From a virus (taxonomy: Duplodnaviria; Caudoviricetes): a stretch of 50,488 nucleotides of DNA. Positions 2,501 to 23,636 of this stretch are shown here, piece after piece. Both the position numbers and the translations under genes were made by a program. The stretch covers positions 1-50,488 of IMG/VR virus record IMGVR_UViG_3300005326_000058; one strand, given 5' to 3'. The notes under the pieces are model-generated. The model worked only from the letters and a program-made list of their open reading frames with translations. It had not been told where the DNA came from and searched no databases. Numbering within the stretch: the stretch's first letter is position 1; every line of letters starts with the position of its first letter.

Positions 2501-3847
2501 TCAATACATCTGTACTAAACCTTTTTCCTGTAAAAGACTGTCAAGGCTCATAACTCTGTCAATTGCTTTTTGTGGTTCTGTTGGTTCCGGTTGGGTCATG
2601 GCCTTACCGTAACCAGTGACACTCTGGGCGTAAGGTAACGGCTCATCACCGTAAGGTTTAGGTTCCAATCCGTAACCTGTACGGACTTCATTCACTAATT
2701 TAACACCGTTCCTTAGTTGTATGTTTTCGATATTAGCCCTCTGTAACTTGTCTTCGAGGTCTATGTCTCCGAAATGGAACCTTTCTTCAAAACCCCATAG
2801 GTCAAAGGATTTACCCATGACTCTGTTAAATTCATCCTCGACTGGTTGCAGGACTTTACCGACTAATCGTTTCTTGAATTTCTTATCAGCGGTGTTATCC
2901 TTTTCATTCCCTAGGCTTCCGGCGGTGTAGATTCCCACGTTCTGAGGTGGTACTCCGTAGGATGCTACTATCCGGTCTCTTATCCTGTCTTGTAGGTCGG
3001 TGAATTGCATATCCCTATTTGATAAACCGGCTTCCTGGAAGGTTCCACCCTTCAGGAAATAGGTACCTTGAGGGTTATCCTGGGCTTGTTTTTTAATCCT
3101 AGCTATGTTGGCGTTGAATGTTTCATCCTTCATTTCTGAATCAAATATCATGAAGTTTTTAGGACTCATTCCACTGTCAAACCAGCCCTTATTAAAGTCC
3201 ATGGAAAGAATATCCAGGGTGATTGATTTGGCGGCCTTGTCAATAGGGCTCTTCCCATACAATTCATTCCACGGATCCGGGTTCATGATATGGATAAGTT
3301 CATCATTCTCATAGCGAACCTTAGAATTAATCAGGCCCCATTGATCAGTATCGTAATGATAAGTCAACCGGTGCGGTTGTATGAAGTAGAAACCCACCGG
3401 CATTCCCTTAATCACATCATCATGGACGCATTCAGCGAACCAATCACCCGGCCCTAACTGCGATGATACTCCACGCATGATGAACTTTGTAAAGGTATCC
3501 ACGCCATCCGGTCCATCTGGCCTGTTGAATAGGTCCTTAATATAGGCCACCACATCCGGATCGTCCTTCTCCTTCTCATCACTGTAAACATCAAAACCAG
3601 CTGCTAGGGTGTCAATCACATAAGCATCTATGCAGGCACTTATCCATTCATTGTCCATGGCCATGTAGTAGGTGGTCCAGGTTGGTTTAGCCTGTTTAGA
3701 CCGGTCCCCGTAACTGTAATGGATGAATGGGTTAAGCCATCCTAAAGGTCCATAACCTTCCCTTACTGGTTTGGGTTCTGGTTTCCTTACTATCTGGAAT
3801 GGTAAGGCTTTGCTTATGGTATTGAATATTGACATGGTTTTCCTCAT
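2501..3847 (-). CDS. Portal protein (HK97-like)
   Basis: Motifs ELIHI-NPDP-ELYGKSPI, DMQFTD, IVASYGVPP and NEVR-GLEP-GDEP; follows terminase. Confidence 0.92.
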   Translation of the reverse strand: MRKTMSIFNTISKALPFQIVRKPEPKPVREGYGPLGWLNPFIHYSYGDRSKQAKPTWTTYYMAMDNEWISACIDAYVIDTLAAGFDVYSDEKEKDDPDVVAYIKDLFNRPDGPDGVDTFTKFIMRGVSSQLGPGDWFAECVHDDVIKGMPVGFYFIQPHRLTYHYDTDQWGLINSKVRYENDELIHIMNPDPWNELYGKSPIDKAAKSITLDILSMDFNKGWFDSGMSPKNFMIFDSEMKDETFNANIARIKKQAQDNPQGTYFLKGGTFQEAGLSNRDMQFTDLQDRIRDRIVASYGVPPQNVGIYTAGSLGNEKDNTADKKFKKRLVGKVLQPVEDEFNRVMGKSFDLWGFEERFHFGDIDLEDKLQRANIENIQLRNGVKLVNEVRTGYGLEPKPYGDEPLPYAQSVTGYGKAMTQPEPTEPQKAIDRVMSLDSLLQEKGLVQMY

Positions 3848-5289
3848 AGTTGTATAACTTCTAAATCCATTGACTTTCCTTCATCTGGATTTCTCAAATA
3901 ATTGAACCCCTGACTTAAACTATCCATAATGTTAGGAGATATTTGCATTACTGGGGCCAATCTCCCTATCTCTTGCTTTAATAATTCAAAATAAGATTCG
4001 TTATAACTTGATTCAACATAATACTTATATTCTAAGAGTTTGTTAATTAAAATCAATCCCTGACTCATCTCACGAATCAAAGGCCGGGCTCGGTTAAACT
4101 TGGATCCTTTAGGGCTCCGGGGCTCTACTATGATATCCATCTGATCAAAAAATTCTTTCCAATACTTTTCTGTATCAACCCAGCTGCCAGGTTCAATCTC
4201 AAGTATGCAGGTTGAAGGATATACTCTATGGTTATTATCTTCCATCACATGTTTTTCAATAAGTAACTCTGTACTTGTACCTACAGTTTGACTAATATTG
4301 TCAATCATGATTCTGTTGGTACTTGCATCAAGGGTAAGGGTAGATACAACAAATTTATCACGCCCACGCCCAGCAAGGTCAATACTTAAAATTGAAGTTG
4401 ATTCTGAAGGATAATTAGAAGTTAAATAATTTTTAATCAGATTTATATCAATTAATCCACCCTGAGCATAAGTATAATGCCAGTTCCCTTCCTTCTGACT
4501 TTGCTTATCAATCTCATCCAAGTCTTCCAGGCTGGCTTCAAATTCAACCTGGTTAATGTATGGATTAGTACGCCATCCCATAGGGACATAAACATATTGC
4601 CCTTCGACATATTCATTCAAAAATCGTTTACTGCTATCATTCAAAACAAATGTTTTAGGGTCAAATTGAGGGTTTCCAAAGTTTATAATTGCTTTAGGGA
4701 ATCGTGATTCACTCTGTTGTCTTAAGCTTCTTCCTTGAAATGTTAATATTGATTTTTCAAGTTCCGGGGCTTCGTCATTTTCTATTACTTGATAAGATTT
4801 ACTCCGAGTCTTTTCCTTCTTAGTAACATGTTCAAAGGCACGGAAAGTTAATAATCCTCCCTCTTTGCTTTTTATCCTTGGAGGGTGTGATTGTTTAATA
4901 TTTAATTTTCTTTCATTCCCATACTCATCAACTAATTCTTCATTCCATAAACCAATATATCCCCAAATACTGTCTTCTCTCTCTTCTAATAAGTCATCAT
5001 AATTCTTTCGAGTAACTAAACCTTTAAATCCTTTAATAGGCATGAATCTAAGACCTAAAGCGGCACCAAAAAGAGTCTTACCCCCAAATGCTTCACCACC
5101 TATTAAAATACGATGGTAATCTGTAGGAATAGGCCTATTTAAATAAATCCAACTTTTCAATTGTTGAGGATAACCTAAAATCCCTTTTTTTATTCTATCT
5201 GGTAAGTAAGGATTATCAATTAATGTGAGCTTTAACATGTCCCGATCATACTGAGTAATAGGTCCTATGTCTAAATTTGCCAAAAGCAA
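3844..5289 (-). CDS. terL: Terminase large subunit
   Basis: Walker A GGEAFGGKT, Walker B VIENDEA, FGNP motif, nuclease-domain SIDLA..DK and DSLSQG; TTG start. Confidence 0.9.
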   Translation of the reverse strand: MLLANLDIGPITQYDRDMLKLTLIDNPYLPDRIKKGILGYPQQLKSWIYLNRPIPTDYHRILIGGEAFGGKTLFGAALGLRFMPIKGFKGLVTRKNYDDLLEEREDSIWGYIGLWNEELVDEYGNERKLNIKQSHPPRIKSKEGGLLTFRAFEHVTKKEKTRSKSYQVIENDEAPELEKSILTFQGRSLRQQSESRFPKAIINFGNPQFDPKTFVLNDSSKRFLNEYVEGQYVYVPMGWRTNPYINQVEFEASLEDLDEIDKQSQKEGNWHYTYAQGGLIDINLIKNYLTSNYPSESTSILSIDLAGRGRDKFVVSTLTLDASTNRIMIDNISQTVGTSTELLIEKHVMEDNNHRVYPSTCILEIEPGSWVDTEKYWKEFFDQMDIIVEPRSPKGSKFNRARPLIREMSQGLILINKLLEYKYYVESSYNESYFELLKQEIGRLAPVMQISPNIMDSLSQGFNYLRNPDEGKSMDLEVIQL

Positions 5290-5295
5290 ATCCCC

Positions 5296-5898
5296 CTATT
5301 CCCCATTTGGCTGATCTACTTTGTTTAAAGCATTGTCCATGATCTGGTTAAATTTGTCTGAATATGTATTCTCGGTTTTACCTTCAACTTTGCTAATCTC
5401 TGAAGGTTCACCGGCTGCGGTCTTACTAATTTTCTGAGCACTCTCAAGGGCCCTACCTGCATTCATCAGGTAATAAGCAGCGTTCTTAGGAGTTCCAAAG
5501 ATTAGATCTCCTTCTTTAGTCACCGCAACAACAAGTTTTCCTTCTGTAATTTTTTCTATTTCCTTTACAGCTGCCCGTCTCAATTTGTTAGCAGCTTCAT
5601 TAAAGTGATAGTCCTCTACCACTATGGCTTCAGCTTCAGCTTCACTGATTTCTTCATCATTTCTTTGTTTTTTTTCTGCAACTTTTGTGCGTACTTTGGC
5701 CACGTAGTCTTTTCTTCGCTGTTCCCAGTTAAGTGGCCCAACTTTCCTACGTAGTGTATTGTATGAGACTTTGTACCATTCGGCAGCTTCTTTGACTTTA
5801 GGGTAGATTTTGTTTCCTTCTTCATCCCTGTAGCCCCTTACTAGATCCCGGTCTATGGTTTCTAGTAGTTTTTCTGTGATTGGTTTATAGTCTGTCAT
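5296..5898 (-). CDS. terS: Terminase small subunit (putative)
   Basis: N-terminal HTH (KEAAEWYKVSYNTLRR...W.QRR) plus coiled coil, directly upstream of terL. Start moved to MTDYKP (5898) because the longer ORF overlaps a small upstream ORF. Confidence 0.7.
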   Translation of the reverse strand: MTDYKPITEKLLETIDRDLVRGYRDEEGNKIYPKVKEAAEWYKVSYNTLRRKVGPLNWEQRRKDYVAKVRTKVAEKKQRNDEEISEAEAEAIVVEDYHFNEAANKLRRAAVKEIEKITEGKLVVAVTKEGDLIFGTPKNAAYYLMNAGRALESAQKISKTAAGEPSEISKVEGKTENTYSDKFNQIMDNALNKVDQPNGE

Positions 5899-6371
5899 GA
5901 TGTGATCATCCTTTGTGCTTCTGTGTTTGATCTGTGTCTGTTGTGTTCTGTGTTTCATCTAGTGTATCACAGAGCACTTGGTAAAAATTAGTTTCTTCCA
6001 TGGGGGGACTGAGTTGTTGGTATTGAGTTATGGTATCTCCAGGGAATGTCATAATAGTCACTTCTTATGCACACTTTCAAGATACTTATTCATGTTAATC
6101 TGTTCATCCCTGGTTGGTCCTTTGACTGTTCGGAGTTGGTCAGGGTACTTGTAAGGATTGTAAACAGTTTCATGGAAAATAGAATTAGTCATAAGTATTC
6201 ATCCATAATTTGGTCCTGGATCTGTTTTTATTTCCTGGACTTCATCTAGTGCCTTATGGTATCCATCCTTAAAACCCTCCAGATAACAGTCTGCCATTTC
6301 TTTAGCAGTGTATAATCTTTCATCTTCTGGAGTTTTGGTGTCTTCTTTCATGAGGAAACCTTCAATTAATT

Positions 6372-6940
6372 AAGGGTTTAAGGAGGTGTTAATGTATTCA
6401 CTATTTCCTTTCATTTAGGGAAGGGTTTAATGAGAATAATAAGTAATGGTTAAATCCTTTCATGAGTTATGGGTTTTAGTGGAGTTTCAACTTTTCACTA
6501 TTCCCTTTACTTTGGTGTGGGTTTTAGTGGTCACTATTGTTTTTGTTAATCCCTTTCACTTTGTGATCGGATTAGTGGGATCAATAGTGTCACCTTATTC
6601 CCTTTGATGAGTTGTGAAAATTAAAGGGGTCTTAATTTTTTTTAGTGGCCCTTTGTTGTGATTGTCATGGTGTGGGAATTAAGGTGGGCTTATTTTTATT
6701 TAGTGAGATCTTATTCCCTTTGTGATTTTGTAGGGTTTAGTGAAAACTTCAAGAGGTGCTTATTTCCTTTGAGGTTGCAATGGGTTTAGTGACTGTTATT
6801 GTTTCTCTTATTTCCTTTGGTGTTGTGATCGGTTTAAGGATGTTTTGTTAATCGTGTTATTCCCTTTTGAGAAGTAAGGGTTTTAGTTAAAAGTATAAGT
6901 GATGCTTATTTCCTTTTATTTCATAAGGATTTTAGTGGAA
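6372..6940 (-). repeat. Non-coding dual-box tandem array, ~12 units of 48-49 bp
   Basis: Minus-strand unit: CACTAAA(A)CCC-N10-AAAGGRAATAA-N15-17. The plus-strand TAWWYCCTTT box starts at 6402, 6451, 6499, 6547, 6596, (6645), 6712, 6761, 6809, 6858 and 6907. No ORF spans the region. Confidence 0.9.
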
Positions 6941-6985
6941 TTTTATAAAAAGTATTACTTCATTTATAAGTAAAAATTAAAAAAG
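6941..6985 (-). promoter_or_regulatory. Putative TATA element(s) upstream of the array, preceded by an oligo-T tract
   Basis: Minus strand reads TTTTTTAATTTTTA-CTTATAAA (6963-6970), ~25 bp before the first unit; a second TTTATAAA lies at 6942-6949. Confidence 0.45.
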
Positions 6986-7029
6986 GTCTAAGAGTGCTTG
7001 GATTCCTATGGTAAACATTTCTGAAAGTA

Positions 7030-7503
7030 TTACATCTTTAGGAATAATGAAATGATAATAGCAGCCAAGGACAATGATATGAATATAAGGGATGTGGTGA
7101 TTGATATCTTCCTATCCAACCATTTATCAGACTTTAATTCATCCTTAGACTCTTCATCTTCATCTTTATGAGTCTTGTCTTCCATCCTACTTATGCGGCT
7201 GTTGAAATCAATTAACCTTTGCTCTTCCTGGTTAACAGCCCGGCCCAGGTTAACAACTCTACGGGCTAACTGTAAAGATTCACTGGCCAGATCATCCACC
7301 ACGTCTTCAGCCTCATGTATCTTTTTCTCTATCCGGGTTAATCGTTGGCTGTCTGTGAATGAATCATCAGACCTTCCATCAGTGATTGCGTGTTGTATGT
7401 CTCTTTTACGTTCGGTTCTGTCTATTGCTTTCTCTTTTTTTTGAACCATTTCCTCATCCGTGGAACCATTCATGTGTTCTGGTTGGGGTGTCATGTGATT
7501 CAA
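7030..7503 (-). CDS. Coiled-coil protein with C-terminal transmembrane helix
   Basis: Heptad-rich body; hydrophobic C-terminus ISITTSLIFISLSLAAIIISLFL. Confidence 0.7.
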   Translation of the reverse strand: MNHMTPQPEHMNGSTDEEMVQKKEKAIDRTERKRDIQHAITDGRSDDSFTDSQRLTRIEKKIHEAEDVVDDLASESLQLARRVVNLGRAVNQEEQRLIDFNSRISRMEDKTHKDEDEESKDELKSDKWLDRKISITTSLIFISLSLAAIIISLFLKM

Positions 7504-8638: not shown

Positions 8639-9049
8639 TTATGAGCTTAAATTAAGTATCTCATTGCTCTTATACACTGCATGGACTATCTGCCATGGAC
8701 TTTGAGGTTCTGGTTGAACTGTTTCCATTTTGGAAACTGTTGGTTCTGGTTCAACATAGGATGTTAACCATGCTCTGGGATTGTATGTTTTATCCTTCCC
8801 TGAGAAACTGTAATCGGCCCCGCATCTATGGCAGCTTATTTCATCATTGCGTTTTAAACCACGCTCTAAACAGTTATAGTGGTCACATAAAGGGCAGTAT
8901 GAAATAAATGAATAGTGTGTGTAATATCCTTCATTAATGCCTGTAGTATATCCTGAGCCACTTATAACCTCATAATCAACTGCATTAACTCCATGGACGG
9001 TTAAAAGTCCTATGCATAAGACAATCCAGAATAAAAGTAATCTCTTAAT
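8639..9049 (-). CDS. Secreted or membrane-anchored protein with CxxC motifs, probable ATT start (136 aa)
   Basis: Hand translation (I/M)KRLLLFWIVLCIGLLTVHGVNA...YCPLC...ISCHRCGADY...GKDK. In-frame TAG lies just upstream; GGAGAGTGA RBS precedes ATT. Absent from the ORF track. Confidence 0.7.
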   Translation of the reverse strand: MKRLLLFWIVLCIGLLTVHGVNAVDYEVISGSGYTTGINEGYYTHYSFISYCPLCDHYNCLERGLKRNDEISCHRCGADYSFSGKDKTYNPRAWLTSYVEPEPTVSKMETVQPEPQSPWQIVHAVYKSNEILNLSS

Positions 9050-9532
9050 TCCATCACTCTCCTAATGGTTTTAGGTTTTCTAGTTTTTGCATTGCAATAA
9101 ACTAGTAGCCACGGCCACTTTGGAGTATTTAAGGCCCTTTAAAAGGCCGTTAGTGTCATTGTCATCACCCTTTAAAATGATTTAAATCAATAGAATTAAC
9201 ATGATATGTGATTTGTATTTCATCACTTCCGCAGCTTATACAGAACCTATGAGGTCCGTCACCGGTGGAGGTGTTCTTCTTCCAGCATTTTCTGCATAGG
9301 ATAGTAGTATTAACCATTTTCAAACCACTGTTTATTAGGAAGGTGTGGGGCCTTAACCCGGCCCAGAGGTGGTGTTTTAATATGGCTTACAAAGCAAGTA
9401 TGTGATGAAAATTAAGGAGGTAGGCAGATCTTTATCGACTGTACCAACATTTGCTAAGGACCTGCCAGAATGGGTTTGAAGAAAGGGCAGCTGATATAGA
9501 AAAGCGGGTTTTATAATTCCCTCTCTTGAATG

Positions 9533-10444
9533 TCAATGCTTAACTCTGACTTTATTTTTATAATACTTCCAGTAACTAGGATTCATAGGGTCATTGTCAG
9601 AGTAGTCTTTAGGGTTCTGTTCTTCAAAAATCATCCCAGTTTCAGCTTCATACTTTTTATAAGCTTTATCATGGGCTTCTTTGATTACATTACGTTTTTT
9701 TGGAGTCCTTTTCCTAGATTTTCTTTGGGTGAAATCAACTGGTGGAAAATCTTGAACAGTTGCAGCAACCTTTTTAATAGGAGTTAAGTCATAAAGAGTA
9801 AACCCTGGATGAATAATTGGAGCTTTAAGAACCAGCCCACACCTTGGATTGGAACAAATCAAGAGGGCTCTTTCAACTAAGCTTTGGTTATTCCCACATT
9901 CAGGGCATTTTAAAGAGTTTTCTTTCAAATATGAAGTACTAATATGGTACAGGTCATCGGCTGTAACATATTGGTGTGAAGGGGATGACCCCGTGTCGGG
10001 GTCTTTTTGTCTTCCCTTACTATACCCTGTATGAAAAGTCTCTTTTTTCTCAGATTGTAGGTTTAACCATTCACTATAAAATGAAAGGTTATATGTTAAT
10101 TTGGTTTCATATATTATTGTATGGGTAAATCCTAGGTATGTTATTGTTTCTAATTTGTAAATAAACCCAATGCTACACCCATTTATTGTTATAGTTGGTA
10201 TTAACTTTCTTTGTTTGATTGTGCCTAATGGTTTTAGATTCTCCCTTTTCTTATTTTTTAAATAATTTTTTCTCCTTGAAGCCCGGTTACTTTCCAGAAT
10301 AGAATGGTGCCTACACTTAGCAGAACAATATTGTTTATTTGGTTGGGTGGTGAAGAATAGTTTAATGCAGCTTCTTTTAGACCCTCTACAATTTTTCAAA
10401 TATACTTTTGTTTGCTTTGGGTTGGATTGAACATGAGCAGTCAT
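9533..10444 (-). CDS. Zinc-finger protein with a TFIIB/TFB-like zinc ribbon; candidate transcription regulator
   Basis: N-terminal C..C/YCS..C finger; CPECGNNQSLVERALLICSNPRCGLVL resembles the TFB N-terminal ribbon. Confidence 0.55.
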   Translation of the reverse strand: MTAHVQSNPKQTKVYLKNCRGSKRSCIKLFFTTQPNKQYCSAKCRHHSILESNRASRRKNYLKNKKRENLKPLGTIKQRKLIPTITINGCSIGFIYKLETITYLGFTHTIIYETKLTYNLSFYSEWLNLQSEKKETFHTGYSKGRQKDPDTGSSPSHQYVTADDLYHISTSYLKENSLKCPECGNNQSLVERALLICSNPRCGLVLKAPIIHPGFTLYDLTPIKKVAATVQDFPPVDFTQRKSRKRTPKKRNVIKEAHDKAYKKYEAETGMIFEEQNPKDYSDNDPMNPSYWKYYKNKVRVKH

Positions 10445-11400
10445 TGGATCCCTCCATTACTTCCCATAGTCTCTCCGAACCATTGAATAATATAATTTGA
10501 GAAAAGTTGAACCCATGTTTTACGTTTGTAATTAGTTTTAGGATGGCAGGATTTGCACAAAGTTATTAGGTTAGTTGGTTCATTGTTTTCTTTATTGTAG
10601 TCAATGTGATGTATTACTAAGTCTTGCTTAGCCCCGCATAATTGGCATTGGTTGTTGTCTCGTTTTTTAATCTTGGATTTTAATATCTCATTGAAATCAT
10701 GAGGATAAATCTCATCACTGATTCCTTCGTAATAGTAGGGCCTTTCCTGAAGTATTGCACATTTGTTACTGCAATAAATCATTTCACTTTTTATGAACCT
10801 ATGATTCAATCCCTTTTTACCTAATCGGACTTTATCTTTAACTATTTCATAATTATGAGAGTTTACAACATATTTTCGTTTCTTTTTGATTGGCTTACCG
10901 CACTCCTGACATTTAGTTACAAATTGTAAATCATAGCAATCAAAACAGTAAGGCACGAACTTATTATATTTAAAAATGGTTCCACATTTTTTGCATTTCT
11001 GTGTTCTTAATCCGGAGTCTCTGCAATGAGGATCACAAAAAATATTTTCAGAATCTTCATATTTTTTATGCACCACACGATCTTTTCCACAATATTTACA
11101 TTTCTTTATTATGAAATCCGGATCATTTTTTTTATAACAGTTCCAGGAACAATATTCTTTCTTCCAAGCGTCCTTCTTTCTTAAACTCTTTGTTGGAATA
11201 AACTTAGAATTGCAAGTAAGACACCTATCTTCACTTTTACTAATTTCTATTATCTCCTTGCATTCATCCCTATAATTACGACATGAACTGCAAACCTTTA
11301 CTTTCCTACTCCTCTTTTTTGGATAAATTTCCCCACACCATGAACATATAAAAATGGATCCTATATTTAATGCTAATTCTTGTGCTAAATCCAATCTCAT
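10441..11400 (-). CDS. HNH endonuclease with multiple CxxC zinc-finger repeats
   Basis: C-terminal RDNNQCQLCG...IHHIDY-K-NN...NLITLC.SCH; repeated C..CG / YCS..C motifs; AT-rich. Confidence 0.88.
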   Translation of the reverse strand: MRLDLAQELALNIGSIFICSWCGEIYPKKRSRKVKVCSSCRNYRDECKEIIEISKSEDRCLTCNSKFIPTKSLRKKDAWKKEYCSWNCYKKNDPDFIIKKCKYCGKDRVVHKKYEDSENIFCDPHCRDSGLRTQKCKKCGTIFKYNKFVPYCFDCYDLQFVTKCQECGKPIKKKRKYVVNSHNYEIVKDKVRLGKKGLNHRFIKSEMIYCSNKCAILQERPYYYEGISDEIYPHDFNEILKSKIKKRDNNQCQLCGAKQDLVIHHIDYNKENNEPTNLITLCKSCHPKTNYKRKTWVQLFSNYIIQWFGETMGSNGGIQ

Positions 11401-18653: not shown

Positions 18654-19145
18654 TTACACCCCCTTCTTAGCCATGCTTTTTGGTTGATTCAGTTCAACAT
18701 ACTTCTCTAAAACTCTGAATAAGATTGATTCAGTGTCTTCTCTTTCATCTTCAACATCATTCAAAAGATAGATGCCTATGAATCGGTTGAGTTTATTCTG
18801 TAATCTTAAAGCATTTTCAACCCGGTTCATCATGTGCATACGTTCTATGTCCCTGAGTGATTGGTGCAACTTATTGATCACCTCTAATCTCTTATCAAGT
18901 ATGATTCTAAGAGGTTCAACTGCAAAGAAAGAGAGATTATAATAATTAGAATAAATATCTTGAAGTATTTCTTCCATCTGCCTGTTAACAGTTATTAATT
19001 CATTGAATAATACAGGCGTGTCTTCATGGAAAACTTTATTATAATTAGGAATGATTCTATCCTGCCTATCATAGAGGCTGTTCATCTTTTCAACCCATTT
19101 CTCCATCCCTATGTCTTCAATATGTTCTTTCAATTTTTCATCCAT
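18654..19145 (-). CDS. Helical hypothetical protein
   Basis: ORF with GGGTGA RBS. Confidence 0.6.
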   Translation of the reverse strand: MDEKLKEHIEDIGMEKWVEKMNSLYDRQDRIIPNYNKVFHEDTPVLFNELITVNRQMEEILQDIYSNYYNLSFFAVEPLRIILDKRLEVINKLHQSLRDIERMHMMNRVENALRLQNKLNRFIGIYLLNDVEDEREDTESILFRVLEKYVELNQPKSMAKKGV

Positions 19146-22807: not shown

Positions 22808-22845
22808 TATAAATACTTTACTGTAAATGCTGTATTTACTGTAAT
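22808..22845 (-). promoter_or_regulatory. Archaeal promoter with tandem TACAG operator boxes, copy 1
   Basis: Minus strand TTACAGTAAATACAGCATTTACAGTAAAGTATTTATA (BRE-like AAAG plus TTTATA); nearly identical to 24535..24572. Confidence 0.7.
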
Positions 22846-22930
22846 ATAATAATATAAATATAATATATATAATATAATAATAATTATAATAATATAAATA
22901 ATAAATAAATAATAAAGTAAAAAAGAGTAA
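22843..22930. other. Near-pure A/T tract; candidate origin unwinding element
   Basis: About 70 consecutive A/T bases (ATA/AATA microrepeats) in an intergenic region beside replication-related genes. Confidence 0.55.
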
Positions 22931-23045: not shown

Positions 23046-23636
23046 TCATGATCGAAATTCCTCTTCTAAAATTGATTGGAGTTTATCAGATTCTAAATTC
23101 AAACCATAAGCCCATCTTTTTACATCACTCTGGTTTAATTTTCCTTCATTCTCATATTGCCTTTTAAAAAAAGCTTTAGCTTTATCAATCTCGTCCTTAG
23201 GTTTTTCAGTGCTAAAATAAGATTCTAAATTCAACTTAGTTAATTCTCCAGAATTAACAGGATCTATAATTTCCTTTTTGACAAGTTTCTTAATATCTCC
23301 CATACTCAAATTCAGTTGAACCCGCCTGACATCAAGTACAGGATCATGAATAACATTATCATTCAAATAACCTCTAGCCAGGTCCTTGAGAACTTCGGCC
23401 TGGGAATCGGGATCGATTATAATTTCATCCCTAAGTTTATCCATTTCATTTTCAACATTCGTCAATTGTTTCAATAATACGTCCCTTTTTTCTTCTAATA
23501 CTGCATAATTACTATTTTTACCCATTAAAAATTTATATCCTTCAATTAATGCTTTAGATGGACCAATACCTTTCTTCTTTCCTGCTTCTATCAATTCCTC
23601 ATGTTCTTTCTTAATATATACGTTGAGACGAGCCAT
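23046..23636 (-). CDS. Protein with N-terminal RHH-like domain and coiled coil; possible regulator or initiator
   Basis: MARLNVYIKKEHEELIE...PSKALIEG beta-alpha-alpha pattern. Confidence 0.55.
   Translation of the reverse strand: MARLNVYIKKEHEELIEAGKKKGIGPSKALIEGYKFLMGKNSNYAVLEEKRDVLLKQLTNVENEMDKLRDEIIIDPDSQAEVLKDLARGYLNDNVIHDPVLDVRRVQLNLSMGDIKKLVKKEIIDPVNSGELTKLNLESYFSTEKPKDEIDKAKAFFKRQYENEGKLNQSDVKRWAYGLNLESDKLQSILEEEFRS

Follow-up and report, generated by a model that had tools for sequence, protein, structure and literature searches.

Upstream of the terminase genes in the virus genome analysed here lies a non-coding stretch in which two short motifs alternate with two variable segments. 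Does such an array hold guides, serve as a repeated binding site for a protein, or simply reflect duplication without function? The window, that is, the whole stretch of DNA analysed (50,488 bases), is the complete record G000, a circular virus genome with a 123-nt direct terminal repeat, and encodes capsid, portal, terminase, integrase and pseudomurein endoisopeptidase. Because homologues of the window's terminase carry names from Methanobacterium, a host in the Methanobacteriales is likely. The array sits between a 157-aa ORF and a 50-aa ORF, with the terminase genes further downstream, all on the minus strand (Table 1).

Table 1. The array, its parts and its neighbours in the window.
Feature	Position	Strand	Remarks
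Dual-box array	6359..6965	minus	Nine full units plus a unit with box 2 alone, a degenerate box 2 at the 5′ end and a 3′ unit whose box 2 is truncated
Unit 1 (example)	6905..6937	minus	Box 1 6937-6927, N10 6926-6917, box 2 6916-6905
48-nt unit missing from L089 and from the deep contig of run X2	6759..6806	minus	
Central irregular domain, predicted long hairpin	6591..6686	minus	Box 2 and a linker recur, inverted, as the 5′ arm
Last unit	6359..6383	minus	Box 1 whole, linker of 10 nt, box 2 cut short (AAGG)
157-aa ORF	7030..7503	minus	Upstream of array; hydrophobic C-terminus
50-aa ORF	6199..6351	minus	Accompanies the array in both viruses
44-aa ORF	6058..6192	minus	Also in array-less viruses and in 27/314 host-family genomes
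Putative terminase small subunit (by position)	5296-5958	minus	Downstream of array
Terminase large subunit (TerL)	3844-5289	minus	Downstream of array
Two GTAATAC half-sites 75 bp apart, with TATA-like tract	6952..7033		Flanks the array

A reading made from the sequence alone had described two alternating motifs with a 48-49-bp period, and both the alternation and the period were borne out. The array covers about 12 unit lengths with a period of 48-49; nine complete box 1-N10-box 2 units were counted in the window versus 0-2 across 1000 Markov simulations, and the ten copies of box 2 follow one another at spacings of 49, 49, 48, 49, 116, 49, 48, 48 and 49. The array is longer than the 6372..6940 first assigned to it, extending from 6359 to 6965. 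It begins with box 2, its 5′ end being the degenerate copy at 6965-6954, and finishes in the 5′ half of box 2, where the AAGG of the last unit stands 8 nt before the ATG of the 50-aa ORF, at the expected ribosome-binding site. The irregular stretch noticed earlier is also present, although it spans about 6615-6710 rather than ~6645-6710, and is predicted to fold as a long hairpin. No ORF had been seen in the region, and all six frames are indeed closed by 13-20 stops each, with a longest stop-free run of 54 codons. A reading as micro-ORFs or as a gene for a repeat protein was rejected, since most periods measure 49 nt and stops occur in every frame.

Outside the window, one of six matches in a metagenome scan proved to be a true homologue, in the contig L089; the other five were chance matches. 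L089 represents a different virus, with other upstream genes and another terminase family, but window positions 5952-6920 align with it at 85%, and the two have a near-identical array and three small ORFs in common. L089 lacks exactly one 48-nt unit and carries one 49-nt unit extra. Its array begins 3 nt after a stop codon and has an undamaged 5′ box 2; the linker of this box is almost a duplicate of the following one. Box 2 is degenerate in four of its units, indicating that single boxes are dispensable. Contigs from run X2 hold the L089 alleles and, in addition, a third, partial haplotype whose 10 changes fall in 345 nt of array, with 0 in 507 nt upstream (p = 1e-4); all 10 lie within 75 nt, so that one recombination tract may explain them, and they bring unit 4 closer to units 1 and 3. 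The array is thus known from two viruses and a partial haplotype, which may come from a single habitat. The window itself may derive from run X1.

A search with a model of the array units, of the kind that the sequence-only reading had proposed, detected no array in 10 other sources. Five syntenic relatives (L001, L056, L081, L082 and L314) are without the array, including L001, whose TerL is 89% identical to that of the window. It was not found by pattern or blastn in 314 host-family genomes, 0/314 of which contained two units. Pattern scans of IMG/VR returned 0, 54, 23 and at least 124 stretches (the last from 47 of 64 parts), none with clustered units, and annotated phage records gave short matches at most (E of at least 0.7). 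Periodicity peaks in G003 and G005 were rejected as coding or low-complexity repeats. Shared by two viruses, not found elsewhere and able to gain and lose units, the array is an accessory cassette that is rare and mobile and varies in length.

Box 1 and box 2 lie at a constant distance in all 16 aligned units of the two viruses, with linkers of 10 nt (N10) and 15-16 nt (the long linker). Among units, mean pairwise identity is 78% in box 1 and 87% in box 2, versus 40% in N10 and 33% in the long linker (30% when shuffled in either case); the inter-box sequence does turn over at a held spacing, as had been stated. Nor are the variable segments as conserved as the boxes between viruses, which, coupled with a lack of targets, would have told against the earlier reading: the window and L089 differ at 7/158 box sites and 29/199 linker sites (p = 0.0014, or p = 0.08 without the poorly alignable unit 2). 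Divergence between the viruses is greatest in the first units, and 9 of the 10 changes in the third haplotype fall in linkers. Boxes and spacing that are kept while linkers are free to vary bear the mark of repeated recognition by one protein.

Several linkers are related to one another, either directly or as inverted copies, and this kinship, together with the changes in the third haplotype, points to duplication and drift or exchange rather than spacer acquisition. The linkers contain 8.4% G, compared with about 16% in 475 host CRISPR spacers (p = 3e-4) and 12.4% in other intergenic DNA (p = 0.03). Because G-poverty is common to intergenic DNA, it sets the linkers apart from spacers without making them special. 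The search for targets of the paired segments that had been suggested found none in 204,675 bases of related viral DNA, a sample of low power, in which 0/28 segments beat shuffles at p < 0.05 and bipartite matches numbered 71 versus 76 ± 14 expected. Linkers that look like diverged duplicates, are poor in G and lack targets argue against acquired guides. A comparison of the 475 host spacers with the virus gave no convincing match, the best being 18 nt. We also considered and rejected an anti-Shine-Dalgarno role, as pairing by the linkers is no stronger than that of other intergenic 15-mers (p = 0.39) or of dinucleotide shuffles (p = 0.08) and the pairing signal stems from the start of box 1. 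A 10-nt stretch at 6377-6386, comprising parts of the last linker and box 1, matches the 3′ end of host 16S rRNA exactly and is unchanged in L089; matches to the 16S end are not enriched across the array.

Box 1 repeats box 2 imperfectly and in inverted orientation, with 13-nt arms around 8 nt (13-8-13), and the nine units are the nine best such dyads of the genome (23-32 bits, the next scoring 20.7). The centres of the half-sites lie about 22 bp, or two turns, apart at an invariant spacing. One 13-8-13 dyad alone lies outside the array (9043-9076, 20.7 bits), overlapping the beginning of a small gene rich in cysteine, which has homologues in L001, L056 and L089. Drawn as an RNA hairpin, the unit has two outer U-A/A-U pairs and two inner C-G pairs, which are kept in 11-16 of 16 units. 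At the two positions between the kept pairs A stands opposite A in 13/16 units, and wherever one of the four mismatch positions is not A, it is T. The first two A of the AAA in box 2 are invariant in the 16 units; the mirror T is found in 3/16. Covariation in the unit hairpin does not exceed that of shuffles (48.3% paired versus 49.3% shuffled; 415/500), and single units fold weakly (-0.5 to -8.2 kcal/mol).

Compared with linker shuffles in which the boxes were held fixed, the array as a whole folds with z = -5.4 on the minus strand and -3.5 on the plus strand, and the L089 array with z = -2.2 on each. This excess is owed to the central domain and units 7-11. The central domain reaches z = -4.2 with boxes fixed and is predicted to form a 14-bp stem in L089, whereas units 1-5 show no gain over linker shuffles (z = 0.04). 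Two L089 changes, one per arm, add two pairs to the stem of the central domain, and two others disrupt pairing in the hairpin of unit 7. Inspection by eye showed no bulge-helix-bulge, K-turn or pseudoknot motif in the array, and Rfam returned five matches at E 1.3-8.5, all far under the gathering score.

The array belongs to none of the families tested, and no family of Rfam and no definition of TIGR, CRISPR or type III antitoxins covers it. TIGR arrays have two alternating short repeats and two variable segments in 5-15 units with truncated end repeats, and occur in viruses (PMC12045711). They are described with a unit of 36 nt, two 8-12-nt spacers (9+9), box C/D pairs and a Nop-domain Tas gene (PMC12045711; 10.64898/2026.09.09.750476). 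The array resembles TIGR-Tas in its two alternating 8-12-nt repeats and two short variable segments, but differs in its period (48-49 versus 36), in its segment lengths (10 and 15-16 nt versus 9+9) and in the orientation of its boxes, which are inverted copies where those of TIGR are direct. Box C/D intervals in the array numbered 3 and 1 on the two strands, against 5.0 and 4.0 in shuffles, and no pair was chained, in L089 as in the window. The families PF01798 and PF02371 had no match in six frames, and no Nop domain was seen in 50 ORFs, two of which were examined by structural model. The earlier statements that box C/D motifs and a Nop-domain gene are lacking, and that the array is neither CRISPR nor TIGR, agree with these results.

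Viral mini-CRISPR arrays exist; unlike them and full CRISPR arrays, the present array has no single near-identical repeat and no acquired spacers of 30-40 nt. RNA anti-CRISPRs (Racr) are reportedly virus-borne, solitary repeat units. The array, too, is a virus-borne candidate for small repeated RNAs in a host group rich in CRISPR-Cas, but its units do not match host repeats and its linkers are too short and not acquired. In phage PhiTE, pseudo-ToxI is said to be a repeat-RNA decoy composed of viral tandem non-coding repeats that expand by duplication, and the array shares this layout, growth by duplication and perhaps a decoy role. Type III antitoxin arrays, with near-identical repeats of 34-57 nt, differ from it in that its units are far more divergent and no toxin gene is adjacent; ToxN was detected in 3/314 host-family genomes, and the repeats of 38 and 34 nt found at two of these three loci do not resemble the array. 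Sponge RNAs of the CsrB/RsmZ type carry many copies of a short purine motif, recalling the AGGA/AGGGA in box 2, its many copies and the A/C-rich, G-poor sequence. They differ from the array by its strict period and second box, and to our knowledge a CsrA partner is not expected in methanogens. Palindrome, operator and tethering arrays are known as REP/BIME arrays, NikR 6-16-6 operators and the EBV family of repeats. The tandem imperfect palindromes of about 34 bp, the short linkers and the half-sites two turns apart are reminiscent of these, but in contrast to REP/BIME the array occupies one locus, is not dispersed in hosts (8 matches versus 18 for the control in 201 genomes) and has asymmetric halves. 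A repeat decoy or a binding array, the probable way in which it works, has precedents. The array itself is apparently undescribed in the literature searched, subscription papers and preprint supplements lying outside that search, which accords with the proposal that the system is new.

The neighbouring genes offer no evident partner. The 50-aa ORF was rejected as a cognate effector: none of its 12 matches is named, and the homologous loci, found in 5/314 host-family genomes in gene-dense, provirus-like regions, are without arrays. The homologue of the 157-aa ORF in L056 (82%) is likewise not followed by an array. The 44-aa ORF, which has a TVYNP motif, is a small protein common to host and virus, with unannotated-looking chromosomal homologues mostly in one genus. 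A singleton, all-helical ORF (18654-19145, minus strand) matches the C-terminus of Cas8b (E 4e-4) and a ring nuclease model weakly; it was rejected as Cas8b, the structural model being of low confidence and without a fold match. The genome also encodes ribbon-helix-helix-like and Myb-like proteins, and ORF 23046-23636 gave leads below 0.9 to ribbon-helix-helix-like clusters and to nothing else. A 319-aa protein (10441-11400, minus strand) in a low-GC region combines repeated cysteine clusters with a C-terminal HNH domain and has a distant homologue in G003. Where the window has its terminase pair, L089 carries the other family, and the window terminase genes have no tblastn match there. Close viral relatives exchange whole terminase pairs in this region (window 5289-5958 versus L089 3328-5386, and L056), while the last TerL codons and the start of the portal gene stay identical.

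We tentatively favour, at somewhat less than even chances, the view that the array acts as a multivalent RNA, binding a host protein as a decoy or scaffold. It would be transcribed on the minus strand together with the neighbouring late genes, as it has no conserved promoter of its own, and the RNA would contain 11-12 box 1-N10-box 2 modules, each bound by one protein. Cleavage inside box 2 may yield RNAs of about 49 nt, which would work as a multivalent decoy or scaffold and not as a set of sequence guides. Since no candidate effector travels with the array, the partner is presumed to be a host protein rather than a viral one. The co-directional arrangement and the end of the array at the expected ribosome-binding site of the next gene in both viruses would suit such an RNA, as would the conservation of A on the same strand, the unequal halves, the structured central domain and the orphan half-units at both ends; by analogy, these ends could be compared with those of processed arrays with truncated end repeats. 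Pointing the other way, as judged from the sequences, are the lack of covariation, the weak single-unit hairpins, the unremarkable folding of units 1-5, the pairs disrupted around unit 7 in L089 and the similar z-scores on both strands; spacing this rigid would be expected of DNA binding and is seldom seen in a sponge. The loss of significance without unit 2, the clustered haplotype changes, the degenerate L089 boxes and the small sample of two viruses and a partial haplotype also weaken the case. If the array is a decoy, a pull-down would name the host protein that these viruses gain by titrating. Counter-defence is poorly known in methanogen viruses, and the array behaves as a selected, mobile, length-variable cassette.

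Whether RNA or DNA is the substrate is a close call. That the units are dyad sites on DNA, arrayed for a protein that binds as a dimer or tetramer and serving as a roadblock operator before the packaging operon, an episome tether or a DNA decoy, is a serious possibility, though by itself unlikely, and they would then constitute a new archaeal-virus cis-element. The inverted 13-8-13 half-sites that rank as the top nine dyads of the genome, their invariant spacing of about two helical turns, the weak hairpins without covariation and the exclusive change from A to T at the mismatch positions all fit it, and the ribbon-helix-helix-like and Myb-like proteins could provide a binder. Both Myb-like genes, however, are also present in G003, which is complete and has no array; moreover, the left and right halves hold different consensus sequences, the 48.5-bp period is out of helical phase, the terminal units are orphan halves and the bipartite site is not enriched in hosts. 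With decoy RNA and DNA-level binding leading, the sequence-only reading retains one half of its first option and all of its third; the guide half of the first has lost ground for want of an effector and targets. A new archaeal-virus dual-loop guide-RNA array with an unrecognised effector, neither Nop nor Cas, would represent RNA guidance through an effector of no known fold, and we regard it as improbable. A cut inside box 2 would then release RNAs of ~49 nt, with box 1 pinning both ends and guide loops of 10 nt and 15-16 nt, and the guides would have diversified by duplication or exchange between co-occurring viruses, a scheme no more probable than the reading it serves. The TIGR-like layout, the fixed N10 length, the unit-precise indels, the high divergence of the first units and the concentration of third-haplotype changes in the array speak for guides. 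The interrelated, G-poor linkers without targets in the low-power viral sample speak against them, as do a six-frame search without a Nop or IS110-like match and the absence of any Cas family above cut-off.

It is more doubtful still that the array is a functionless or decaying satellite, formed by slippage and inverted duplication of a 5′-UTR hairpin and hitch-hiking with the small ORFs. This would explain why the last unit merges into the ribosome-binding site of the next gene, why box 2 is similar to viral ribosome-binding regions, why inverted copies occur among the linkers and degenerate boxes in L089, and how five relatives manage without an array; yet boxes at 78-87% identity beside near-shuffle linkers, at exact spacing, are hard to obtain without selection, and 600 bp are kept in two gene-dense genomes. 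The second option raised earlier, an RNA anti-CRISPR whose units mimic host type I-B repeats and load or sequester Cas6/Cas7, has fared poorly and now seems very improbable. cas2 is present in 80/131 host-family genomes, and the units partially resemble the 30-nt host repeats, with ACTAAAATC at the 5′ end and GGATT close to the 3′ end (uncorrected p about 0.02 across five related repeats). Repeats were extracted at 29/32 cas2 loci. On a model of host repeats, the units reach -8 to 11 bits versus 17-29 for true host repeats, and 24 non-array sites of the genome outscore the best unit; the units also lack the ATTGAAA handle, and their gap exceeds that of the repeats by 3-4 nt. Least probable of all is a packaging site or replication origin, as might be suggested by the position just upstream of the terminase genes and by a local reversal of GC skew: in L089 the same array stands ahead of an unrelated terminase pair, and the relative with the closely similar TerL does without it. 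A separate TAA-rich tract (window 22817-22915; L090 19250-19340), with flanking sequence common to G003, is itself a candidate origin or control region.

The TATA-like element that had been placed ~25 bp before unit 1 is present but not specific to the array, since it occurs with the GTAATAC pair in the array-less G003 and G004 and is missing in L089; it is therefore not part of the array. A 137-nt contig of run X2 matches window 6948-6977 and then departs at 6948 into other sequence, which suggests that a further, array-less virus with this upstream element co-occurs. The GTAATAC half-sites (window 6952-6958 and 7027-7033) are kept in four viruses between lysis-like and packaging genes, with equivalents at about 8920-9000 in L001, at about 2277-2360 in L056 and at 9212 in L081. 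They match the host motif GTAWTAC-N25/26-GTAWTAC, from which the array sequence differs. In hosts, this motif precedes cbiM/nikM-like, cation-efflux, hypA-like and nikR-locus sequences (genes named from their translations). The pair is likely a NikR-type operator, judging from these matches, and the viruses that carry it may respond to nickel.
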